This document shows, one piece after another, positions 2,666 through 10,092 of a DNA stretch of 10,154 nucleotides. Source of the DNA: a virus (lineage: Duplodnaviria; Heunggongvirae; Uroviricota; Caudoviricetes); the IMG/VR virus record IMGVR_UViG_2654587726_000009; one strand, written 5' to 3'. Made by a program: the position numbers and the translations under genes. Every line of letters begins with the position of its first letter. Positions within the stretch are counted from its first letter, which is position 1. Under the pieces are notes generated by a model. The model was given only the letters and a program-made list of their open reading frames with translations, was not told the origin of the DNA and made no database searches.

Positions 2666-3871
2666 TTACGCCACTGCAATCTTCAGCAGTTTGATGGCCT
2701 GCGAATCGACCAGCATCCCGCCGGTGCGCTTGGTGGTATAAAAACCGACAAACGGTTTATTGGTGTACGGGTCACGCAGAATGCGGGGGCCGATACGGTC
2801 AACGATGGTGTAACCCCGTTTGAAGTTACCAAATGCAATGGCTTTCGCATCAGCGGCGATATCCGGCATCTGTTCGTTTTCAGCGATACCGTAACCCGCC
2901 AGAGAGGACGGCTGCCCCAGCTCCAGCCCCGGACGCCACAGATAGTTACCCTCGATGTCTTTAAGCAGACGGATGGCAAACAGGCTATTGTTGTTCATCA
3001 TGAACTTCGCGCCAGTGCGGTGTGCCTTACGCAGCGTGTAAATCAGTTTGATAATGGCGTCTGCGGTCACCGCAGTCGCGTCGCCGGATACAATATGCTG
3101 AAGTTTGCCGAACGCCCGGACCTTATCGGTTTCATCCGTGGATTCATACGCCAGGAACCCTTTCGGCTTCTTGGTACCATCGCCGGTGGTAAAGGCAATT
3201 TCTTCCTGTTCGGCAAATTCGGTTGCCAGCTCGCTGTTGATCCATGCTTCCACGTTGAAAAAGGCATCATCCAGCATTTTCTGGGTGGCCTGCGGGTTAC
3301 CGTAGATTTCCCCCATGAAAGGTTCAATCAGGCCCAGTTTTGAGGTGGCAGTCTGGGAGCGCGCGTCAGTCTCGCCAACCCATCCGGAAGCCGTGCCGCC
3401 CAGATTCACCAGTTTTTTGTAGTCGGAACCACCAACGGTGATCACCGTGGCTTCCTGGCGCATCACCACTTCATCTTTCAGCAGGGTGAGAATGTTGCGA
3501 TCCAGTGCTTCCGGCACGGCATAGCCGCCGTCTTCATCGGTGCCCACCTGCAATGCCTTGCGCTCCAGATCGCGCAGACCATCTTCACGGCCTTTACGCA
3601 GGAAGCCCACAAACGCTTCTTTATGCTCGGTGGCCAGTTTATTTTGCGCACCACCTGCCGGACGTTTCAGCTCAAGCAGCTCTTTTTCAAGATCGCTTTT
3701 GAGGTTTTCCAGCTCGCTGAGTTTCCCGTTCAGGGTTTCCACCTGCCCGGCAAGTTTGCCTTTTTCCTGCTCAATCGCATCCACGCGCTTGTCGTTCTTT
3801 GCTTTGAAGTCGTCAAACTTCTGCTGCAGCTCCTGCGCGACCTGTTCGACATCTTTAATATCAACCGCCAT
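2666..3871 (-). CDS. Major capsid protein, HK97 family, with N-terminal coiled-coil delta (scaffolding) domain
   Basis: 401-aa ORF with strong SD AGGAGA 7 nt upstream of ATG 3871. The first ~100 aa are coiled-coil-like (KLAGQVETLNGKLSELENLKSDLEKELLELKR), followed by a capsid-like body; it sits directly after the prohead protease as in HK97 gp4/gp5. Confidence 0.9.
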   Translation of the reverse strand: MAVDIKDVEQVAQELQQKFDDFKAKNDKRVDAIEQEKGKLAGQVETLNGKLSELENLKSDLEKELLELKRPAGGAQNKLATEHKEAFVGFLRKGREDGLRDLERKALQVGTDEDGGYAVPEALDRNILTLLKDEVVMRQEATVITVGGSDYKKLVNLGGTASGWVGETDARSQTATSKLGLIEPFMGEIYGNPQATQKMLDDAFFNVEAWINSELATEFAEQEEIAFTTGDGTKKPKGFLAYESTDETDKVRAFGKLQHIVSGDATAVTADAIIKLIYTLRKAHRTGAKFMMNNNSLFAIRLLKDIEGNYLWRPGLELGQPSSLAGYGIAENEQMPDIAADAKAIAFGNFKRGYTIVDRIGPRILRDPYTNKPFVGFYTTKRTGGMLVDSQAIKLLKIAVA

Positions 3872-3885
3872 CGTATTTCTCCTGA

Positions 3886-4536
3886 TTAGAAGTTCAGATT
3901 TTTCAGTGCATTCAGTGCAGAGCCCACATCCTCAGCGTCGCGCAGGGACAGTGCGCCATAGCCCCCGGCCATGAATGCTTTGGCCTGGGTACGGGAGAGT
4001 CCGACATCACGCAGGACTCTTTCGATTTTTTTCTGTTCGGGGATTTCCCCGCGGGCCAGTGCGTTCTTGACGTCGCTGATCCGCGCCTCGTCGTTAGACG
4101 GGAACGTCACCAGGCTGACTTCCCAGAGGTCGATTTCTTTCAGCAGAAAGGCTTCTTTGCTCCGGTCGTATTCCCAGTCTTTCAGGACGTACCCAATAGA
4201 AAGGCCGGTTAACGAACCGGCCTTCATGTGTGCATGTGCGCGTTTTGCGAGGGGATCATCATCAATAAGCAACCGTCCCCTGACGTAAAGCCCGACATCG
4301 TCTTCCTTCATTTCAGTGTAAACACCGATGGGTTCATCCATGCGGTGCTGCCAGAGCAGCGCAGGTAACGCTTTTCTGTCACTCCACGCCCGCAGGGAAG
4401 CAGCAAATGCCCCGGACATCACCACATCATCGTGGCTGTCCTTTACACCAAAGACGGAGCCATACCCTTCAAACTCACCGGAGTCACTGACAGATTTCAG
4501 ACTCAGCGGTACATCAAGACGTTGTTTCGTCTGCAT
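3886..4536 (-). CDS. Prohead maturation protease, HK97 family (S78 peptidase)
   Basis: The ORF is open from 4572 (228 aa), but the ATG at 4536..4534 is preceded by a good SD (AAGGA, 8-nt spacer), whereas ATG 4572 has none, so I call the 216-aa form. It contains a DSHDD segment and a GLSIGY segment consistent with the catalytic His and Ser of HK97-type proteases. The start lies inside the 3' end of the portal gene. Confidence 0.85.
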   Translation of the reverse strand: MQTKQRLDVPLSLKSVSDSGEFEGYGSVFGVKDSHDDVVMSGAFAASLRAWSDRKALPALLWQHRMDEPIGVYTEMKEDDVGLYVRGRLLIDDDPLAKRAHAHMKAGSLTGLSIGYVLKDWEYDRSKEAFLLKEIDLWEVSLVTFPSNDEARISDVKNALARGEIPEQKKIERVLRDVGLSRTQAKAFMAGGYGALSLRDAEDVGSALNALKNLNF

Positions 4537-5755
4537 TGGCGTTATCCTTCTGCTTACCGGCTTTACTGCCATCGGAGGGTTCCGTGGTCATGTTCATCGG
4601 TGTGAGATAGACATCACCACCGGGACGCGGATTCATATCTTCCAGGTCGCGGCAGTCATTGGGAGAGTAAATTCCCCAGTTAATCCCGGTGGCGTAGGCT
4701 TCAAAACGGGACTTCATATCCCCGCGCAGTAACGCCCCGGCGTTAAATTTGGCGTAATAAACGCCCTGCTTACTTTTTCGTACCAGTCCGGTGTTGATCC
4801 GCTGTTCGATGCGGGTCAGATACGGCACCAGTGAATAGTTGATAAATCCCAGCCCCAGCTCTTCGATATTGTTGAAGGTGGCGCGATCGGTGTTCTGCAC
4901 CATGTGCAACGGCACCCGGAACAGACGACAGATTTCTTCAAGCTGAAACTTGCGGGTTTCCAGGAACTGGCTGTCCTCGGCGTTCAGCGCCATCGACTTC
5001 CAGTCCAGCCCCATCTCAAGGATCATCGGGCGGTGAGCATTGCCAAGCCCGGTGTGACGCTCCTCAAAATCTTTCTTCAGGCGCTCATAAGCCTGATCCG
5101 ACAGCGTCTGCTCTGTACGCAACACACCCGACGTCACCGCACCATTGCTGAACAGTCTGGCCCCGTGCTCTTCGGTCGCTGCCGCCAGCGATATTGCCTC
5201 GCGGGCATAGGCGATGGGATTCAGCCCCACCAGACCGTCCAGCGTCAGCGTGCGCACATGCCAGATATCCTCCTGGCTCAGTACATCCGTGGAACCATCC
5301 GGGAATGTGACCTGATAGACCGGCTCCCAGCGACTGTTAAGCTTCGGTACCACACAGCCGGGATCGACGGGCAGCAGTTCAGCCACTTCGCCAAATGCTT
5401 TCACTTTGTAGGCGTAAAAGTTTCCCCGCAGGCACAGACAGGTGACCACCAGCTCCCAGAACTCCTGCGGCGTCATATAGCCATTGGGATGCGTGGAGAT
5501 CAGCTTATGCAGACGTTCGCCGGTGGCTCTCTGTTTCAGGCTGCCGTTCAGGTGATACAGATTGCAGGGCAACATCCCGACCGACTCTGCCAGCACTCTG
5601 ACGCAGGAAAAAACCGCCGTCAGTCGCATGGCCCGCTGACTGCTGATCTGCTTTCCGGTATAGGTGTCGTAAGACAACCCGATGGCATCCGCCAGCTCTG
5701 CTGGCGTGGTCACCGGCGCGTCACTTTTTCGTTGAAATAATCCCGAAAAGAACAC
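4514..5755 (-). CDS. Portal protein, HK97 family
   Basis: 413-aa ORF between terminase and protease. It starts at GTG 5755..5753 with a strong SD GGAGGT 5 nt upstream; the first in-frame ATG is 42 codons in and would truncate the protein. Stop is TGA 4516..4514. Confidence 0.9.
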   Translation of the reverse strand: MFFSGLFQRKSDAPVTTPAELADAIGLSYDTYTGKQISSQRAMRLTAVFSCVRVLAESVGMLPCNLYHLNGSLKQRATGERLHKLISTHPNGYMTPQEFWELVVTCLCLRGNFYAYKVKAFGEVAELLPVDPGCVVPKLNSRWEPVYQVTFPDGSTDVLSQEDIWHVRTLTLDGLVGLNPIAYAREAISLAAATEEHGARLFSNGAVTSGVLRTEQTLSDQAYERLKKDFEERHTGLGNAHRPMILEMGLDWKSMALNAEDSQFLETRKFQLEEICRLFRVPLHMVQNTDRATFNNIEELGLGFINYSLVPYLTRIEQRINTGLVRKSKQGVYYAKFNAGALLRGDMKSRFEAYATGINWGIYSPNDCRDLEDMNPRPGGDVYLTPMNMTTEPSDGSKAGKQKDNANADETTS

Positions 5756-5937
5756 TATTTACCTCCGCCGACAGACGGCTGTGTACGGTCGAGATATCGC
5801 GCCACCAGCCACGACCAGAACAGGCACAGCACCCCGGCAACAACAAAACCCGCCGGGGGATAAATCAGCCAGGCACCATACGCCAGCAAAAGCGCACCCA
5901 GCACGCCCACCAGTGGCGCGAGAATTATCAGAAACAT
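5755..5937 (-). CDS. Small predicted membrane protein, 60 aa, two hydrophobic helices
   Basis: [63 protein letters not shown]. It has its own SD (GAGGT, 5-nt spacer) 11 nt after the TerL stop, and its stop TAG shares a base with the portal GTG start. Its last codons (GGC GGA GGT AAA) encode the portal SD. No homology recognised. Confidence 0.45.
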
Positions 5938-5948
5938 AATGACCTCGG

Positions 5949-7706
5949 TTAAAGCGAACGGATGCCCACGCTGACCAGATGTTCAGACAGATCCAGCTCC
6001 GGTTCACCACCATTGACCAGCATCCGGCTCATTGCTGTAAACATCGCAACAGGGCCGTCGATTTTGGCTTCCAGCGTGGATTTATTCGGGAAGATATTGT
6101 CGTTTTTGTCCGGTTTTACCGTAACGTTAGACATCATCCAGTTCATGACCGGATGATTGCTGTGATGGAAACGCCCGGCATAGACCAGTGATTCCGTTTC
6201 CTTCATGGCCTCTGACAGATTACGAACCGTCTGCGGAACCTCCACCAGCGGTATCCCTTCTTCAGCCAGTGCCAGGCTGAACTGCATCGCGCTCCACGGG
6301 TCAAATCCCAGTTCCCTGAGGTTTTCACCACCAATCCATTCCAGTAAGTCACTTTTTATCTGAGCATGATCGATAACATCACCATCCGTCAGAATCAGCT
6401 TATCCATCTCCGCCCACTTCCGGTAAAGTTCTGCCTGCTGCCGCGAGCATCGTTCCAGCCGTCCTTCCGGAAGCCAGAATTTAAAATCGGCATGAACATG
6501 CCCGTTATCCGTTCGCCAGAGTTTTGCCGCCGCACAGATATCAATCTTATGAGCAAGGTCAACGCCGACCCACATGGGATACGTTTTCAGCTCATGTCGT
6601 GGGGCAATGTATTCGCACTTCTCCCACTTAATCATGTCCATCCAGGCAGACTCTGCTGTTACCCACACATTCATGTGTTTGGTAAAAAAATTCACCCGCG
6701 CAGAGACCTGTTCTTTCGCTTTTTTCGCCAGGCGACGCAGATCATCCCAGCGTTTACAGATGCCCAGGCCGGGATTCGCTTTCTGCCAGACCGTTTCATC
6801 AAACGGATCATCTCCCTCATCGAGGGTGTAAATAATCGCAAAGTAGGAGTCGTCTTTTACAGCGCCCTCCACATCGCTGTTATAGCCACGCAATACCTTG
6901 ATGGCGTAATCACGCTGCTCGTAACAAATCCCTTCCTTGTTAAACCCTGCCGTGGTGATACCAAATAACAGGGACTGCAGGCGAGCACCGGTTGCCGTTT
7001 CCAGAACGTCCCACACGTCGCGGGTTTTATGTGCATGCAGCTCATCAATAATGGCGCAGTGGATGTTCAGACCATCCAGGTTGTTTGCATCCGAAGAAAG
7101 CGGTTCAAATTTTGATGCGCTCTGCTCCTGGTAAATCGCCAGCTTGTTGAAATCAAACAACCGCCCGAGTGTCGACCGGGCTTTTCTGACCATATTTTTG
7201 GCGTCTTCAAACACAATTCTGGCCTGGTCACGCGTGGTGGCGGCTGAATACACCTCAGCACCGCCTTCACCATCTGCCCCCGTCATATACAGGCCGATAC
7301 CCGATGACAGAGTTGATTTTGCGTTTTTACGGGCGACTTCGTTGTACGCCGTCCGGAACCGGCGCACCATCACCGGACGTCCGCTGCCATCGCTGCGCAT
7401 GACAACTTCCCCGGTCTCTTCATTCACCAGCGGAATGACAAAACCAAAAATATTAATGAGGATAAATACATGCCAGTCCATCAGTTCAATGGGCTGGCCT
7501 GCCAGCGCCCCTTTTACATGAGGCACAAATTTGTAGAAATTCAGGATGTGCTGCGCACGGGGTTCACTGAAATAAATCCCCCGCTCTTCGCCGTACTTCA
7601 GATCATCAAGAAAACGCTGGCAGGCCAGGCGGACAAATTCGCCAGCAACAATTTCTCCTGCAACAACACGTTCGGCGTAGCGGATCCCGTCAGCCACTTT
7701 TGCCAT
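5949..7706 (-). CDS. Terminase large subunit (ATPase plus nuclease)
   Basis: 585-aa ORF immediately after the small terminase; the two genes share TGATG (stop/start overlap). Contains a P-loop-like segment ARKNAKSTL, a Walker B-like AIIDELH, and a C-terminal region with acidic residues ([10 protein letters not shown]) consistent with a terminase nuclease domain. Confidence 0.9.
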
Positions 7707-8188
7707 CAGTCTCTCGCTTTTAAAAGCTCCGCCAGCGGATCAACATCATCCGGTCCGGCGATATTTACTTTAGCCCGGCTTGCCGGTGACATACCAAACT
7801 CTGCAAGCATTGCCCGGATCCGCTTCCAGGCATCCGCTTTCATTGCCGCCGCGGGGTGCGCCTTAATCAGTACATCACCGCTCTGCGTTTCCGTGCGGTA
7901 GGTATACCCCTCAACATCGAGTGTTTCGCAGTGATGCCGATATTCGGTGTAGGCTTCCACCAGCAACTCGAGCGCACGCGCATCAAGCTGAGAAATGATC
8001 CCTTCCGCATTCAGCTCTTCCGCCATTCGCCTGAACCAGTACTTCCCCTGAGCCCCTAAATGCTGCGGAATTTTAGGAAGACCTTTTTCATCCTTTTTAG
8101 CGGTTTTTTTGTGGTCTTTAACGGGGCGCTTTGAGGGGTTGCCTCGAATCAAATGCAGGCGTGGCGGGGTTTTCGGAGGTCCTGACAT
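7706..8188 (-). CDS. Terminase small subunit, P27 family
   Basis: 160-aa basic ORF (MSGPPKTPPRLHLIRGNPSKRPVKDHKK...) directly upstream of and overlapping the large terminase, downstream of the HNH gene and the cos-like non-coding segment. Resembles P27/HK97 gp1-type small terminases as I recall them. Confidence 0.8.
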   Translation of the reverse strand: MSGPPKTPPRLHLIRGNPSKRPVKDHKKTAKKDEKGLPKIPQHLGAQGKYWFRRMAEELNAEGIISQLDARALELLVEAYTEYRHHCETLDVEGYTYRTETQSGDVLIKAHPAAAMKADAWKRIRAMLAEFGMSPASRAKVNIAGPDDVDPLAELLKARD

Positions 8189-8336
8189 AATCGGTCTTAC
8201 CTATCAATCGTTTGTTCACATTTCCAAAAAAAAGTTTTCGAACCTGCGGCGATGTGAGGAAGGGTCAGGCGGCGGTACTGAGCAGTCAGGGTTGCAGAGA
8301 TTTGCCCCGCCCCTCCCCTGCAGCTGAGAACGATTA
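8189..8336. other. Non-coding segment between HNH and TerS; probable cos / packaging-initiation region
   Basis: The only intergenic gap longer than 50 bp in the window (148 bp). On the phage strand it contains a G-rich tract (GGGGAGGGGCGGGGC), a direct CCTGAC repeat about 24 bp apart, and an oligo-T/A tract (CTTTTTTTTGG). In HK97-like phages cos lies between the HNH gene and the small terminase gene. The exact cosN position is not determinable here. Confidence 0.35.
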
Positions 8337-8687
8337 TCAGTTGATGCGTTCGCGCGCAGTTTTTGCTTTATGGCAGGGCCAGCACAGACTCTGCAGGTTA
8401 CTGTCTGCATCCGTGCCACCATGAGCTTTCGGAATGATGTGGTCCACAGTTCTGGCTTCAACGGCTCTCCCATTGCGCAGGCAGTTCTGACACAGATGAT
8501 TATCACGCTTCAGTATGCGCGCACGTATGGCATCCCATTTCGAGCCATAGCCACGCTGGTGGCGACTCAGTCCGCGCTGATGCTGTACCCATCCTTCGCC
8601 ACGATGTTTATCGCAGTAACCAGAACTGTCTGTGGTTGTACCTGCGCATCCACGCTTACGGCAGGCTCGTGGGATTCGTGATGGCAT
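8337..8687 (-). CDS. HNH endonuclease (terminase-associated, HK97 gp74-like)
   Basis: 116-aa ORF with paired Cys motifs (CQNC ... CWPCH) and DHIIPKAHGGTDADSNLQSLCWPCH, a classic HNH/zinc-finger nuclease signature. SD GAGGT precedes ATG 8687..8685. Location just upstream of cos and TerS matches the HK97-type packaging arrangement. Confidence 0.85.
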   Translation of the reverse strand: MPSRIPRACRKRGCAGTTTDSSGYCDKHRGEGWVQHQRGLSRHQRGYGSKWDAIRARILKRDNHLCQNCLRNGRAVEARTVDHIIPKAHGGTDADSNLQSLCWPCHKAKTARERIN

Positions 8688-8694
8688 AAATACC

Positions 8695-8895
8695 TCATAC
8701 CCTGTTCAGTTTAATGACAGGCTGATTCTCGATATGTTCTGCTGTCAGTCTGAAAGTCACAGTGACTGTTGGTGGCTCGCCTCCGCGTGACTCTGTCCTG
8801 GCGGAAAGCTGTCCTTCCAGTAACTCACCATTAACTGCAATCCCATACCCTGCGAAATGTTTACCACGATAAAGTTTTGCCAGTTGGTAATTCAT
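8695..8895 (-). CDS. Small hypothetical protein B (about 66 aa), paralogue of adjacent ORF A
   Basis: The ORF track begins this frame at 8928, but that codon is GTG with no SD. The in-frame ATG at 8895..8893 has a strong SD (AGGAGGA, 9-nt spacer), giving MNYQLAKLYRGKHFAGYGIAVNGELLEGQLSARTESRGGEPPTVTVTFRLTAEHIENQPVIKLNRV. Shares an AKL[FY]xG[RK]...LxEG...S..TE pattern with ORF A. Confidence 0.5.
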   Translation of the reverse strand: MNYQLAKLYRGKHFAGYGIAVNGELLEGQLSARTESRGGEPPTVTVTFRLTAEHIENQPVIKLNRV

Positions 8896-8924
8896 TTGCC
8901 TGCATCCTCCTGCGACAACCCAAT

Positions 8925-9131
8925 TCACCCATGAAGCAATGTGGCCGATACAATCCCGGCATCACACTCAACGGTTATATCTTCATCCGTGGCATCCACT
9001 TCATATATTCGTGAATAACATTCCGTGCATTTACCACTGAATGTACCTTCAGCCAGAACACGACCACGCTGTAAAATCTGGAACGGGATTCTTCCATTAA
9101 AGAGCTTTGCGGTTACCAGTAATTTCTTCAC
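8925..9131 (-). CDS. Small hypothetical protein A (about 68 aa), paralogue of adjacent ORF B
   Basis: The frame is open from 9149, but that codon is TTG and the protein has no ATG at all. An in-frame GTG at 9131..9129 is preceded by a strong SD (AGGAGA, 4-5 nt spacer), giving (M)KKLLVTAKLFNGRIPFQILQRGRVLAEGTFSGKCTECYSRIYEVDATDEDITVECDAGIVSATLLHG. Start assignment is tentative. Confidence 0.45.
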   Translation of the reverse strand: MKKLLVTAKLFNGRIPFQILQRGRVLAEGTFSGKCTECYSRIYEVDATDEDITVECDAGIVSATLLHG

Positions 9132-9154
9132 ACATTCTCCTGACAACAAAAAGG

Positions 9155-9619
9155 CTACTTAATGCACTGGGTGCGGATATATTCCTGTGCCCCTTCCAGT
9201 TGCTTCTGCATCGTCATCAACCGTTCTCTGAGGGTGAAATAATCCCGTTCAGCGGTGTCTGCCAGTCGGGGGGAGGCTGCATTATCCACGCCGGAGGCGG
9301 TGGTGGCTTCACGCACTGACTGACAGACTGCTTTGATGTGCAACCGACGACGACCAGCGGCAACATCATCACGCAGAACATCATTTTCAGCTTTCGCATC
9401 AGCTAACTCCTTCGTGTATTTTGCATCGAGCGCAGCAACATCACGCTGACGCATCTGCATGTCAGTAATGGTGGCGGTCGCCTTCTCCAGTTCACTGGCC
9501 TTGTTATCGCGCTGTTCTTTGTAGGCGATTGCATTATCACGGTAATGATTAACAGCCCATGACAGGCAGACGATGATGCAGATAACCAGAGCGGAGATAA
9601 TCGCGGTGACTCTGCTCAT
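9155..9619 (-). CDS. Rz: Rz inner-membrane spanin (i-spanin)
   Basis: 154-aa ORF starting [31 protein letters not shown]..., very close to lambda Rz as I recall it: N-terminal TM helix then a coiled-coil periplasmic domain. ATG overlaps the R stop (ATGA at 9616-9619). Confidence 0.9.
9217..9399 (-). CDS. Rz1: Rz1 outer-membrane lipoprotein spanin (o-spanin), nested within Rz in an alternate frame
   Basis: 60-aa [63 protein letters not shown] with lipobox LVVVGC and a proline-rich mature region, wholly embedded in Rz; nearly identical to lambda Rz1 as recalled. Confidence 0.85.
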
Positions 9620-10092
9620 ACCTCAATCTCTCTGACCGTTCCGCCAGCTTCTTTGAATTTTGCAATCAGGCTGTCAACCTTATGCTCGAACTGACCGTAA
9701 CCAGCCCCCGGCAGTGAAGCCCAGATATTGCTGCAACGGTCGATAGCCTGACGAATATCACCGCGATCAATCATCGGTAAAGCGCCACGCTCTTTAATCT
9801 GCTGTAGTGCAACAGCGTCCTGGCTTTTCGGAGAGAAGTCTTTCAGCCCAAGCTGCTTGCGGTAGGCATCCCACCAACGGGAAAGAAGCTGGTAGCGTCC
9901 GGCTGCTGTTGATTTGAGTTTTGGGTTTAGCGTGACAAGTTTGCGAGGATGATCGGAGTAATCAGTAAACAGTTCACCACCAACAATAACATCATAACCG
10001 TGGTTACGTGTCGGTTGTCGCCCGTTATCCGTTCCTTCTGACCAAGCCACCATATCAAGGAAAGCTTTACGCTGGGAATTTAGTACCTGCAT
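9616..10092 (-). CDS. R: Endolysin, lambda R-type lytic transglycosylase
   Basis: 158-aa ORF ...[80 protein letters not shown]..., near-identical to lambda R as I recall it, including the catalytic Glu in AWSEGTD. SD AAGGAG precedes the ATG. Confidence 0.92.

Follow-up and report, generated by a model that had tools for sequence, protein, structure and literature searches.

The segment at positions 8189-8687 of a 10,154-nt stretch of prophage DNA (IMG/VR record IMGVR_UViG_2654587726_000009; the whole stretch is referred to here as the window) very probably consists of the gene for an HNH accessory nuclease and the cohesive-end (cos) site of a prophage that packages its DNA in the manner of HK97 and phiP27. 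The HNH gene (8337-8687) stands directly upstream of a 148-nt non-coding gap (8189-8336), which is homologous to cos regions with known ends and holds the predicted cos. The gap is followed by the genes for a small terminase subunit of the P27 family (TerS, 160 aa; 7706-8188) and a large terminase subunit (TerL, 585 aa; 5949-7706). This order had been described in a first-pass annotation of the window; its coordinates were confirmed, with the whole chain of HNH, terminase and head genes on the minus strand, where alone sensible long open reading frames (ORFs) are found. That annotation also called the gap the only sizeable non-coding segment, and indeed no other intergenic space in the minus-strand gene chain equals its 148 nt, the second largest measuring ~49 nt (2617-2665).

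The succession of HNH, cos, TerS/TerL, portal, protease and HK97-fold capsid genes is a documented module for HNH-assisted cos packaging (PMC3592412, PMC9410871, PMC11331095), and the window matches it, as had been suggested from its resemblance to HK97-like phages. The label "HK97-style" that was attached to it is apt for the HNH protein, TerL, the head genes and the cos core, but it does not apply to TerS, because no relationship between the P27-type TerS and HK97 gp1 could be detected.

Prediction of the cohesive ends

For these comparisons record ends were joined and every sequence was set in TerS-sense orientation; records with ends in the homologous segment came from a search more sensitive than Megablast. 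When the window was aligned with the termini of HK97-like and P27-like phage genomes, a check proposed in the first-pass annotation, the ends of HK97, Pm34, SfI and phiP27 fell at one position inside 8189-8336. With a slash marking a record boundary or predicted nick, the HK97 record ends in ...AAATGAC CGCCGCCAAA/, and the record of Proteus phage Pm34 opens at ...CCTAGGAC/CGCCCCCTTACC... (GGAC/CGCCCCCTTA). The SfI record ends in ...CCGGAC TGCCCGCCCC/, with its 10-nt gap sequenced, and the cos annotation of phiP27 (21806-21815) reads CGCCCGCCCC. In an ungapped alignment all four ends coincide with GTAC/CGCCGCCTGA in the window, a cosN core at 8265-8278 on the minus strand that lies in the context ...CTCAGTAC CGCCGCCTGA CCCTTCC....

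The reference ends come from different kinds of evidence. HK97 has 10-nt 3' overhangs (PMC9410871, PMC11331095), and the published numbering of the HK97 TerS site (T16, G:C at 21, A:T at 24-29; PMC11331095) fits a +1 at the first base of the GenBank record. The SfI 10-mer TGCCCGCCCC is absent from run-off sequencing of virion DNA as compared with the prophage (PMC3636060); the ends of SfI are thus separated by a gap and not an overlap, from which we infer that they protrude at the 3' side. The linear Pm34 record is an exact opening, at GGAC/CGCC, of a sequence that is continuous in Proteus prophages, and the DNA match to phiP27, which covers the HNH gene, extends into the annotated "cos-site" as far as window position 8268.

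Given the coincidence of the reference ends, we predict a 10-nt 3' overhang, 5'-CGCCGCCTGA-3', on the gene-sense strand at 8265-8274. The nicks would then fall at 8274/8275 on the plus strand of the window and at 8265/8264 on the gene-sense minus strand. The same overhang length is seen in 79 of the 79 IMG/VR contigs with enough left flank, which belong to a set of 80 selected as carrying the conserved block to the right of the nick (see below), and 27 of these contigs carry exactly CGCCGCCTGA. Among the 80 IMG/VR loci no contig ended at the predicted nick.

The first-pass annotation had found no symmetric cosN by eye. The core is indeed without two-fold symmetry, which explains why no such site was visible, but cosN could nevertheless be located by alignment. 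A symmetric cosN was accordingly rejected, and repeat finding returned only short inverted repeats of a size expected by chance, none of them centred on the predicted nicks. An asymmetric core is compatible with TerL and the HNH protein each cutting one strand, as has been suggested (PMC11331095).

A partial likeness to the cosN of lambda had also been noted and judged unconvincing. We agree with this judgement: the likeness amounts to a 7-mer, GGCGGCG, which in relation to the terminase genes is inverted between lambda and the window, and it is no evidence for a site of lambda type. The overhangs of lambda are 5' ones of 12 nt; its TerS is of Nu1 type, and it lacks an HNH protein. A lambda-type cos, with a GGGCGGCGACCT-like cosN on the Nu1-sense strand and a Nu1/gpA terminase, was rejected, as the window TerS is of P27 type and its TerL of HK97 type.

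Two phage records carry unusual joints at this site. In the record of phage Fraca (LR597645) a fragment from inside TerL stands at the start, fused to the right side of cos at a point within +1 to +4 from the predicted nick, and the right-hand block is duplicated; the record of phage Evi (LR597642) joins a truncated HNH gene to an inverted TerS fragment and is without cos. Both look like assembly artefacts made at physical genome ends.

If the prediction is correct, the ends of the genome can be stated to the base for this prophage lineage, a help when prophage and virome assemblies are to be oriented or when vectors for cos-based transduction or packaging are designed. Much of the setting is already known: the placement of HNH genes beside cos and terminase genes has been described, the cos sites of phiP27, SfV and SfI were mapped or annotated years ago, and the packaging module in the window is an ordinary one for a type of prophage that is common in E. 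coli.

Conserved elements on either side of the core

The window TerS was used to search one genome from each bacterial species, and 24 loci were found (58-74% TerS identity), in Citrobacter, Enterobacter, Leclercia, Proteus, Morganella, Providencia, Serratia, Pantoea, Klebsiella and other genera. Sequences were aligned with MAFFT, and 34 non-redundant sequences were stacked without gaps on the nick. Mean pairwise identities within the window TerS clade were then set against those between the clade and phiP27, SfV, SfII, HK97 and F1055. Within the clade and against these other TerS types, respectively, identity was 0.74 and 0.78 for a G-rich element (the G-box, -44 to -26), 0.46 and 0.38 for the spacer (-25 to -5), 0.92 and 0.76 from -4 to overhang position 7, 0.70 and 0.12 at overhang positions 8-10, 0.75 and 0.36 from +1 to +8, and 0.85 (28 loci) and 0.42 from +9 to +39. 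The G-box and core are thus common to all TerS types, and the right-hand block tracks the TerS type. The three elements keep a constant spacing over the 24 loci and the phages, with a scrambled spacer between the first two; in the core AC/CGCCGCC is conserved, and overhang positions 8-10 vary.

The G-box, GGGGAGGGGCGGGGCAAATC (GGGGAGGGGCGGGG followed by CAAATC), was delimited in the nick-anchored stack and occupies 8299-8318 on the minus strand, -44 to -25 from the bottom-strand nick. Its G-rich tract GGGGAGGGGCGGGG (coding strand, 8305-8318) stands at a fixed offset in the 34 non-redundant relatives and has high information content in the stack; HK97 has GGGGGGGGGATCAAATC at the same offset, so that the position is kept across the HK97 gp1, phiP27/SfV and window TerS types. 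Because it lies on the side that is packaged last, at a fixed distance from the nick and independently of TerS type, the G-box is probably a cosQ-like element for termination or nuclease positioning. In the literature examined we found no description of a fixed-offset G-box in HK97-, phiP27- and window-type cos sites, and among the top-ranked literature matches none held the G-box or overhang strings in a phage context; we regard this as a modest lead. More speculatively, the G-box (GGGGAGGGGCGGG-N-CAAATC), together with a palindrome at the HNH stop codon, might be a universal and hitherto undescribed signal of cosQ type in HNH-dependent cos phages, recognised by HNH and TerL as a pair and not by TerS, although we think it doubtful that the element is so general. 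Such a signal would fix the site of the asymmetric cut at the end of packaging and would account for the joint recombination of the HNH gene with the left half of cos.

The palindrome in question, TGATAATCGTTCTCA (8325-8339, minus strand; -65 to -51), is an imperfect one that overlaps the HNH stop codon and is a conserved left-hand motif. A TGATAATNATTCTCA-like motif (up to 3 mismatches) is found at -61 to -68 (-74 in one locus) in 15 of 29 relatives, including phiP27, SfV and mEp235, and the longer intergenic variants have a second TGATAATNATTCTCA-like copy near -116. In mEp235, HK97 and three other loci, one or two extra copies of the palindrome AATGATAATCATTATC, ~51 nt apart, lie between the HNH stop and the G-box and flank a GTTGCAtttGCAAC-type palindrome; the window retains only the HNH-stop copy of the AATGATAATCATTATC-like palindrome (8325-8339). 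We take AATGATAATCATTATC to be Fur-box-like. Some relatives in the window TerS clade have an extra small gene, or palindromic motifs totalling 50-60 nt, between HNH and the G-box.

Between the G-box and the core lies a variable spacer (8279-8298, minus strand; -24 to -5), with 27 of 28 aligned sequences agreeing in its length. Within it lies the first copy, not conserved, of a CCTGAC pair (8264-8269 and 8285-8290, minus strand). The first-pass annotation had put forward this direct repeat, a G-rich tract and an A/T tract as candidate cos elements. The two tracts proved to be conserved, but the repeat is of the kind expected by chance: CCTGAC occurs 9 times in the window against an expected 4.9 +/- 2.2. 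Moreover, the first copy reads CCTGGC in 606R7 and in the eight commonest variants of 39 window-lineage viral contigs, and on this comparison it is a private G-to-A change. The CCTGAC repeat was therefore rejected as a cos element on grounds of chance frequency and lack of conservation.

To the right of the nick, the block CACATCGCCGCAGGTTCGAAAACTTTTTTTT (8226-8256, minus strand; +9 to +39) is conserved among 28 loci of the window TerS type. Two parts of it are nearly invariant: CGCAGGTT (8241-8248) and, among phages of this TerS type, the A/T tract GAAAACTTTTTTTT (8226-8239). Within the clade a near-invariant CGCAGGTT(A/C)GAAAACTTTTTT spans +17 to +38, and the right block of mEp235, Pm34, vB_EcoM-606R7 and phi467, the TerS of which is 62-99% identical to that of the window, reads CACATCGCCGCAGGTT(A/C)GAAAACTTTTTT. 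Since it is conserved only within one TerS type, the block is probably the TerS site, and analogy and co-variation make it a candidate cosB-like recognition site. In HK97 the TerS nonamer threads the DNA and reads one G:C pair beside an A-tract, at +15 to +29; the A-tract is essential, and breaking it abolishes TerS binding (PMC11331095).

Next to this block, 24 of 28 clade phages have a GGG(N1-4)CCC palindrome (usually GGGG(N2)CCCC) that follows the A/T tract and precedes the ribosome-binding site of TerS. In the window (8189-8225) and in 606R7 the sequence at this place is unrelated, and the Shine-Dalgarno sequence is weaker (TAGGTAAG versus TAGGAG). The unrelated sequence includes an exact match to the core consensus of integration host factor (IHF), WATCAANNNNTTR (TATCAATCGTTTG; 8202-8214, plus strand), which we list as a candidate only. 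The search for IHF sites had been proposed in the first-pass annotation; it yielded this one match in the 10,154-nt window, where 0.26 would be expected, and the match is common to 606R7 but is not kept outside the window lineage.

The region is a mosaic. Relative to phiP27, the HNH protein of the window is 91% identical, TerS 19% and TerL 38%. In addition, 8 of the 79 analysed IMG/VR loci have a hybrid overhang, CGCCCGCCAA, with a phiP27-like left flank, GTCCGGGAC, and a window-like right flank, CCCTTCCTC..., a composition that indicates natural recombination within the 10-nt overhang. The mosaic protein identities and the hybrid contigs together place within the cohesive end the recombination point at which HNH with the left side of cos meets the right side of cos with the terminase genes.

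HK97 shares the gene order HNH, cos, TerS, TerL, portal, protease, capsid; it has the core GAC/CGCCGCC and the G-box at identical offsets and an A/T tract to the right of the nick, but differs at overhang positions 8 and 9 (TGA in the window, AAA in HK97). phiP27 and SfI, SfII, SfIV and SfV resemble the window in their HNH proteins (75-91% identical), in the G-box (95% identical), in the placement of cos between HNH and a Terminase_4 TerS and in a 10-nt overhang at the aligned position. In contrast, their overhang is C/TGCCCGCCCC where the window has CGCCGCCTGA, and their right-hand side is unrelated, with DNA homology ending inside the overhang. The cosQ-cosN-cosB array of lambda follows a similar three-part logic, with a termination element that is kept in phages of differing packaging specificity, a cohesive end conserved in its left part only, and a TerS-specific binding region on the terminase side (PMC4669245). 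The elements of the two phages appear to be analogous; we found no evidence that they are homologous. The resulting map of an HK97/P27-type cos, with a putatively universal G-box, an asymmetric core and a TerS-specific block, is testable, and it complements the recent HK97 TerS-DNA structure, which is limited to the right-hand side.

Several points weigh against this map. The nick positions are predicted from alignment, with mapped ends coming from relatives of at most 90% identity, and the evidence is confined to the 10,154-nt window of the prophage. The method behind the Pm34 record ends is undocumented in the literature examined. The TerS site is assigned by analogy and co-variation, since the window TerS shows no detectable similarity to gp1, and the conserved right-hand block is more distant from the nick than in HK97, by 8-9 bp. 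The window overhang has diverged from the references, at 2 of 10 positions from HK97 and at 5 of 10 from phiP27; the SfV record begins 7 nt to the left of the 10-mer; and one paper gives the HK97 overhang as 10-nt 3' in a figure legend but as 12-nt 3' in the discussion (PMC9410871). These last three points would also be expected if the gap is cos but the nick bases, the overhang length or the polarity differ from our prediction. We consider such a difference improbable, as four independent references coincide in an ungapped alignment and the distance from AC/ to the right-hand block is a constant 10 nt in 79 of 79 contigs, hybrids included.

The HNH protein and the terminase

The HNH protein (116 aa) matches Pfam HNH PF01844 (1.9e-16) and PHROG 144 (1.2e-41). 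Its N-terminus has a zinc-ribbon-like CxxxxC...CxxxH segment (CRKRGC...CDKH), and its catalytic domain a CxxC...CxxH zinc site (CQNC...CWPCH). It aligns end to end, N-terminal ribbon included, with the HNH nickase of Geobacillus virus E2 (PDB 5H0M, E 2.4e-15), and it is 91% identical to phiP27 L34, 75% to SfV orf53 and 37% over 70 aa to HK97 gp74. The gp74 match is confined to the catalytic half. The N-terminal ribbon places the window protein in the zinc-ribbon group (group 1) of Xu and Gupta, whose classification puts gp74 in a group without the ribbon (PMC3592412); as judged from sequence, it is not simply the ortholog of gp74.

In HK97, gp74 stimulates cos cleavage by TerL (PMC9410871, PMC11331095). 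Stimulation of TerL cleavage at cos has been shown for gp74 only, and we assume it for the window protein by analogy. The terminase-adjacent HNH proteins of Geobacillus virus E2 and Skunavirus (HrdP) are comparable, although they belong to distant phages of Gram-positive hosts, with cos sites that are unrelated as far as compared; HrdP is required for completing packaging and not for starting it.

Some GenBank records, ON470580 among them, label the gene a "homing endonuclease", and HNH domains are frequent among homing enzymes. The protein also has weak HNH-domain matches to defence and restriction families; these were generic and the only matches found in support of a defence-system reading. 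A selfish homing endonuclease with no role in packaging, adjacent to cos by coincidence, is nonetheless very unlikely. A homing gene should be sporadic, but an HNH homolog precedes TerS in 23 of 24 genome loci (with ~150-430 nt separating the HNH match from the TerS ATG), and an HNH gene lies at most 900 nt upstream in 72 of the 80 IMG/VR viral contigs. The protein further matches, over its full length, the terminase-associated HNH class solved as 5H0M, and related HNH proteins are needed for cos cleavage (HK97) or for completing packaging (Skunavirus). The homing reading was therefore rejected.

The assignment of TerS to the P27 type, made in the first-pass annotation, is borne out by matches above the cut-offs to Terminase_4 PF05119 (2.3e-25; 89.3 bits against a cut-off of 24.7) and NCBIfam TIGR01558 sm_term_P27 (4.7e-32; 110.4 bits against 45.6), alongside PHROG 83 (2.5e-55). 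Identity to the TerS of phiP27 and SfV is 19-24%. HK97 gp1 has no Pfam family, and neither BLASTP nor hhalign, the latter with a profile of 15 P27-type TerS, found a match between gp1 and the window TerS. Searches of PDB sequences with phmmer and hmmsearch found nothing, and a fold search with an AF2 model, which was uninformative, detected no fold similarity to gp1. An HK97 gp1-type small terminase was thus rejected for want of detectable homology in sequence or fold. P27-type TerS do have an invariant basic N-terminal arm and an invariant Ser-Arg (S137-R138) where a disordered C-terminal segment begins. These features resemble the N-terminal arginines and Ser127-Arg128 of HK97 and may be analogous to them, a likeness that we treat as a lead.

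TerL is closer to its HK97 counterpart. It belongs to PF03354 and PF20441, the two Pfam families that HK97 gp2 matches as well, and is 29% identical to gp2 over 455 aa (BLASTP, E 7e-41) and 36-38% identical to the TerL of phiP27 and the Shigella phages. Headful (pac) packaging, with the conserved blocks serving as regulatory or translational signals of a late operon, gains something from the conserved TAGGAG...ATG at the TerS start, plainly a ribosome-binding region, but we give it almost no weight, since TerL falls in the families of a cos phage, the gap is homologous to mapped cos sites, and a promoter/terminator scan of the gap found none.

In the cos mechanism that we propose, concatemeric DNA would be cut within GTAC/CGCCGCCTGA (8265-8278) to give mature genomes with 10-nt 3' overhangs. 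The P27-type TerS would bind and bend the DNA at CGCAGGTT and the A/T tract, and TerL (nuclease and ATPase), stimulated by the HNH protein, would make the staggered cut, with the asymmetric core AC/CGCCGCC as nicking site. The HNH end would then carry 5'-CGCCGCCTGA on the gene-sense strand and the TerS end its complement. The left region, comprising the HNH-stop palindrome and the G-box, would be packaged last and may act in termination or nuclease positioning, like cosQ of lambda.

Neighbouring genes and occurrence

Genes were assigned with Pfam, PHROG and NCBIfam. An Rfam scan of the gap found no relevant family. The segment is present in 309 of 5426 complete E. coli genomes, and Megablast against phage records found about ten E. 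coli phages that are 92-98% identical over HNH, gap and TerS.

Upstream of the HNH gene on the minus strand lie the genes of a lysis cassette. The protein in endolysin position (9616-10092, 158 aa) matches PHROG 90 at 4e-64 and has no Pfam or NCBIfam match with E < 0.01; it differs from the 177-aa "lysozyme R" that 606R7 has at the same place. The Rz gene (9155-9619), assigned from the same databases, embeds in another frame a gene for an Rz1 lipoprotein (9217-9399), with lipobox LVVVGC and a proline-rich C-terminal part, a typical arrangement for an o-spanin. Stx2-converting phages have, downstream of Rz, a segment with 80% identity to about 200 nt at the Rz end of the stretch that was compared (roughly 8963-9160).

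Two small ORFs, of 74 aa (8925-9149) and 77 aa (8695-8928) and both on the minus strand, lie between Rz and HNH. They match PHROG families of unknown function (2571 and 10235) and gave no Pfam, NCBIfam or PADLOC match. In vB_EcoM-606R7, which is otherwise 98% identical, HNH follows Rz directly, without the two ORFs, and for this reason they look like a moron-type insertion.

Downstream of TerL, again on the minus strand, are the portal (4514-5755; PF04860, 5e-108), an S78 prohead protease (3886-4572; PF04586, 1e-31) and an HK97-fold major capsid protein (2666-3871; PF05065, 2e-78). Between TerL and portal is the gene for a small membrane protein of 60 aa (5755-5937, minus strand; PHROG 502, category "moron/auxiliary"), and phiP27 has the gene P27p37 at the same position.

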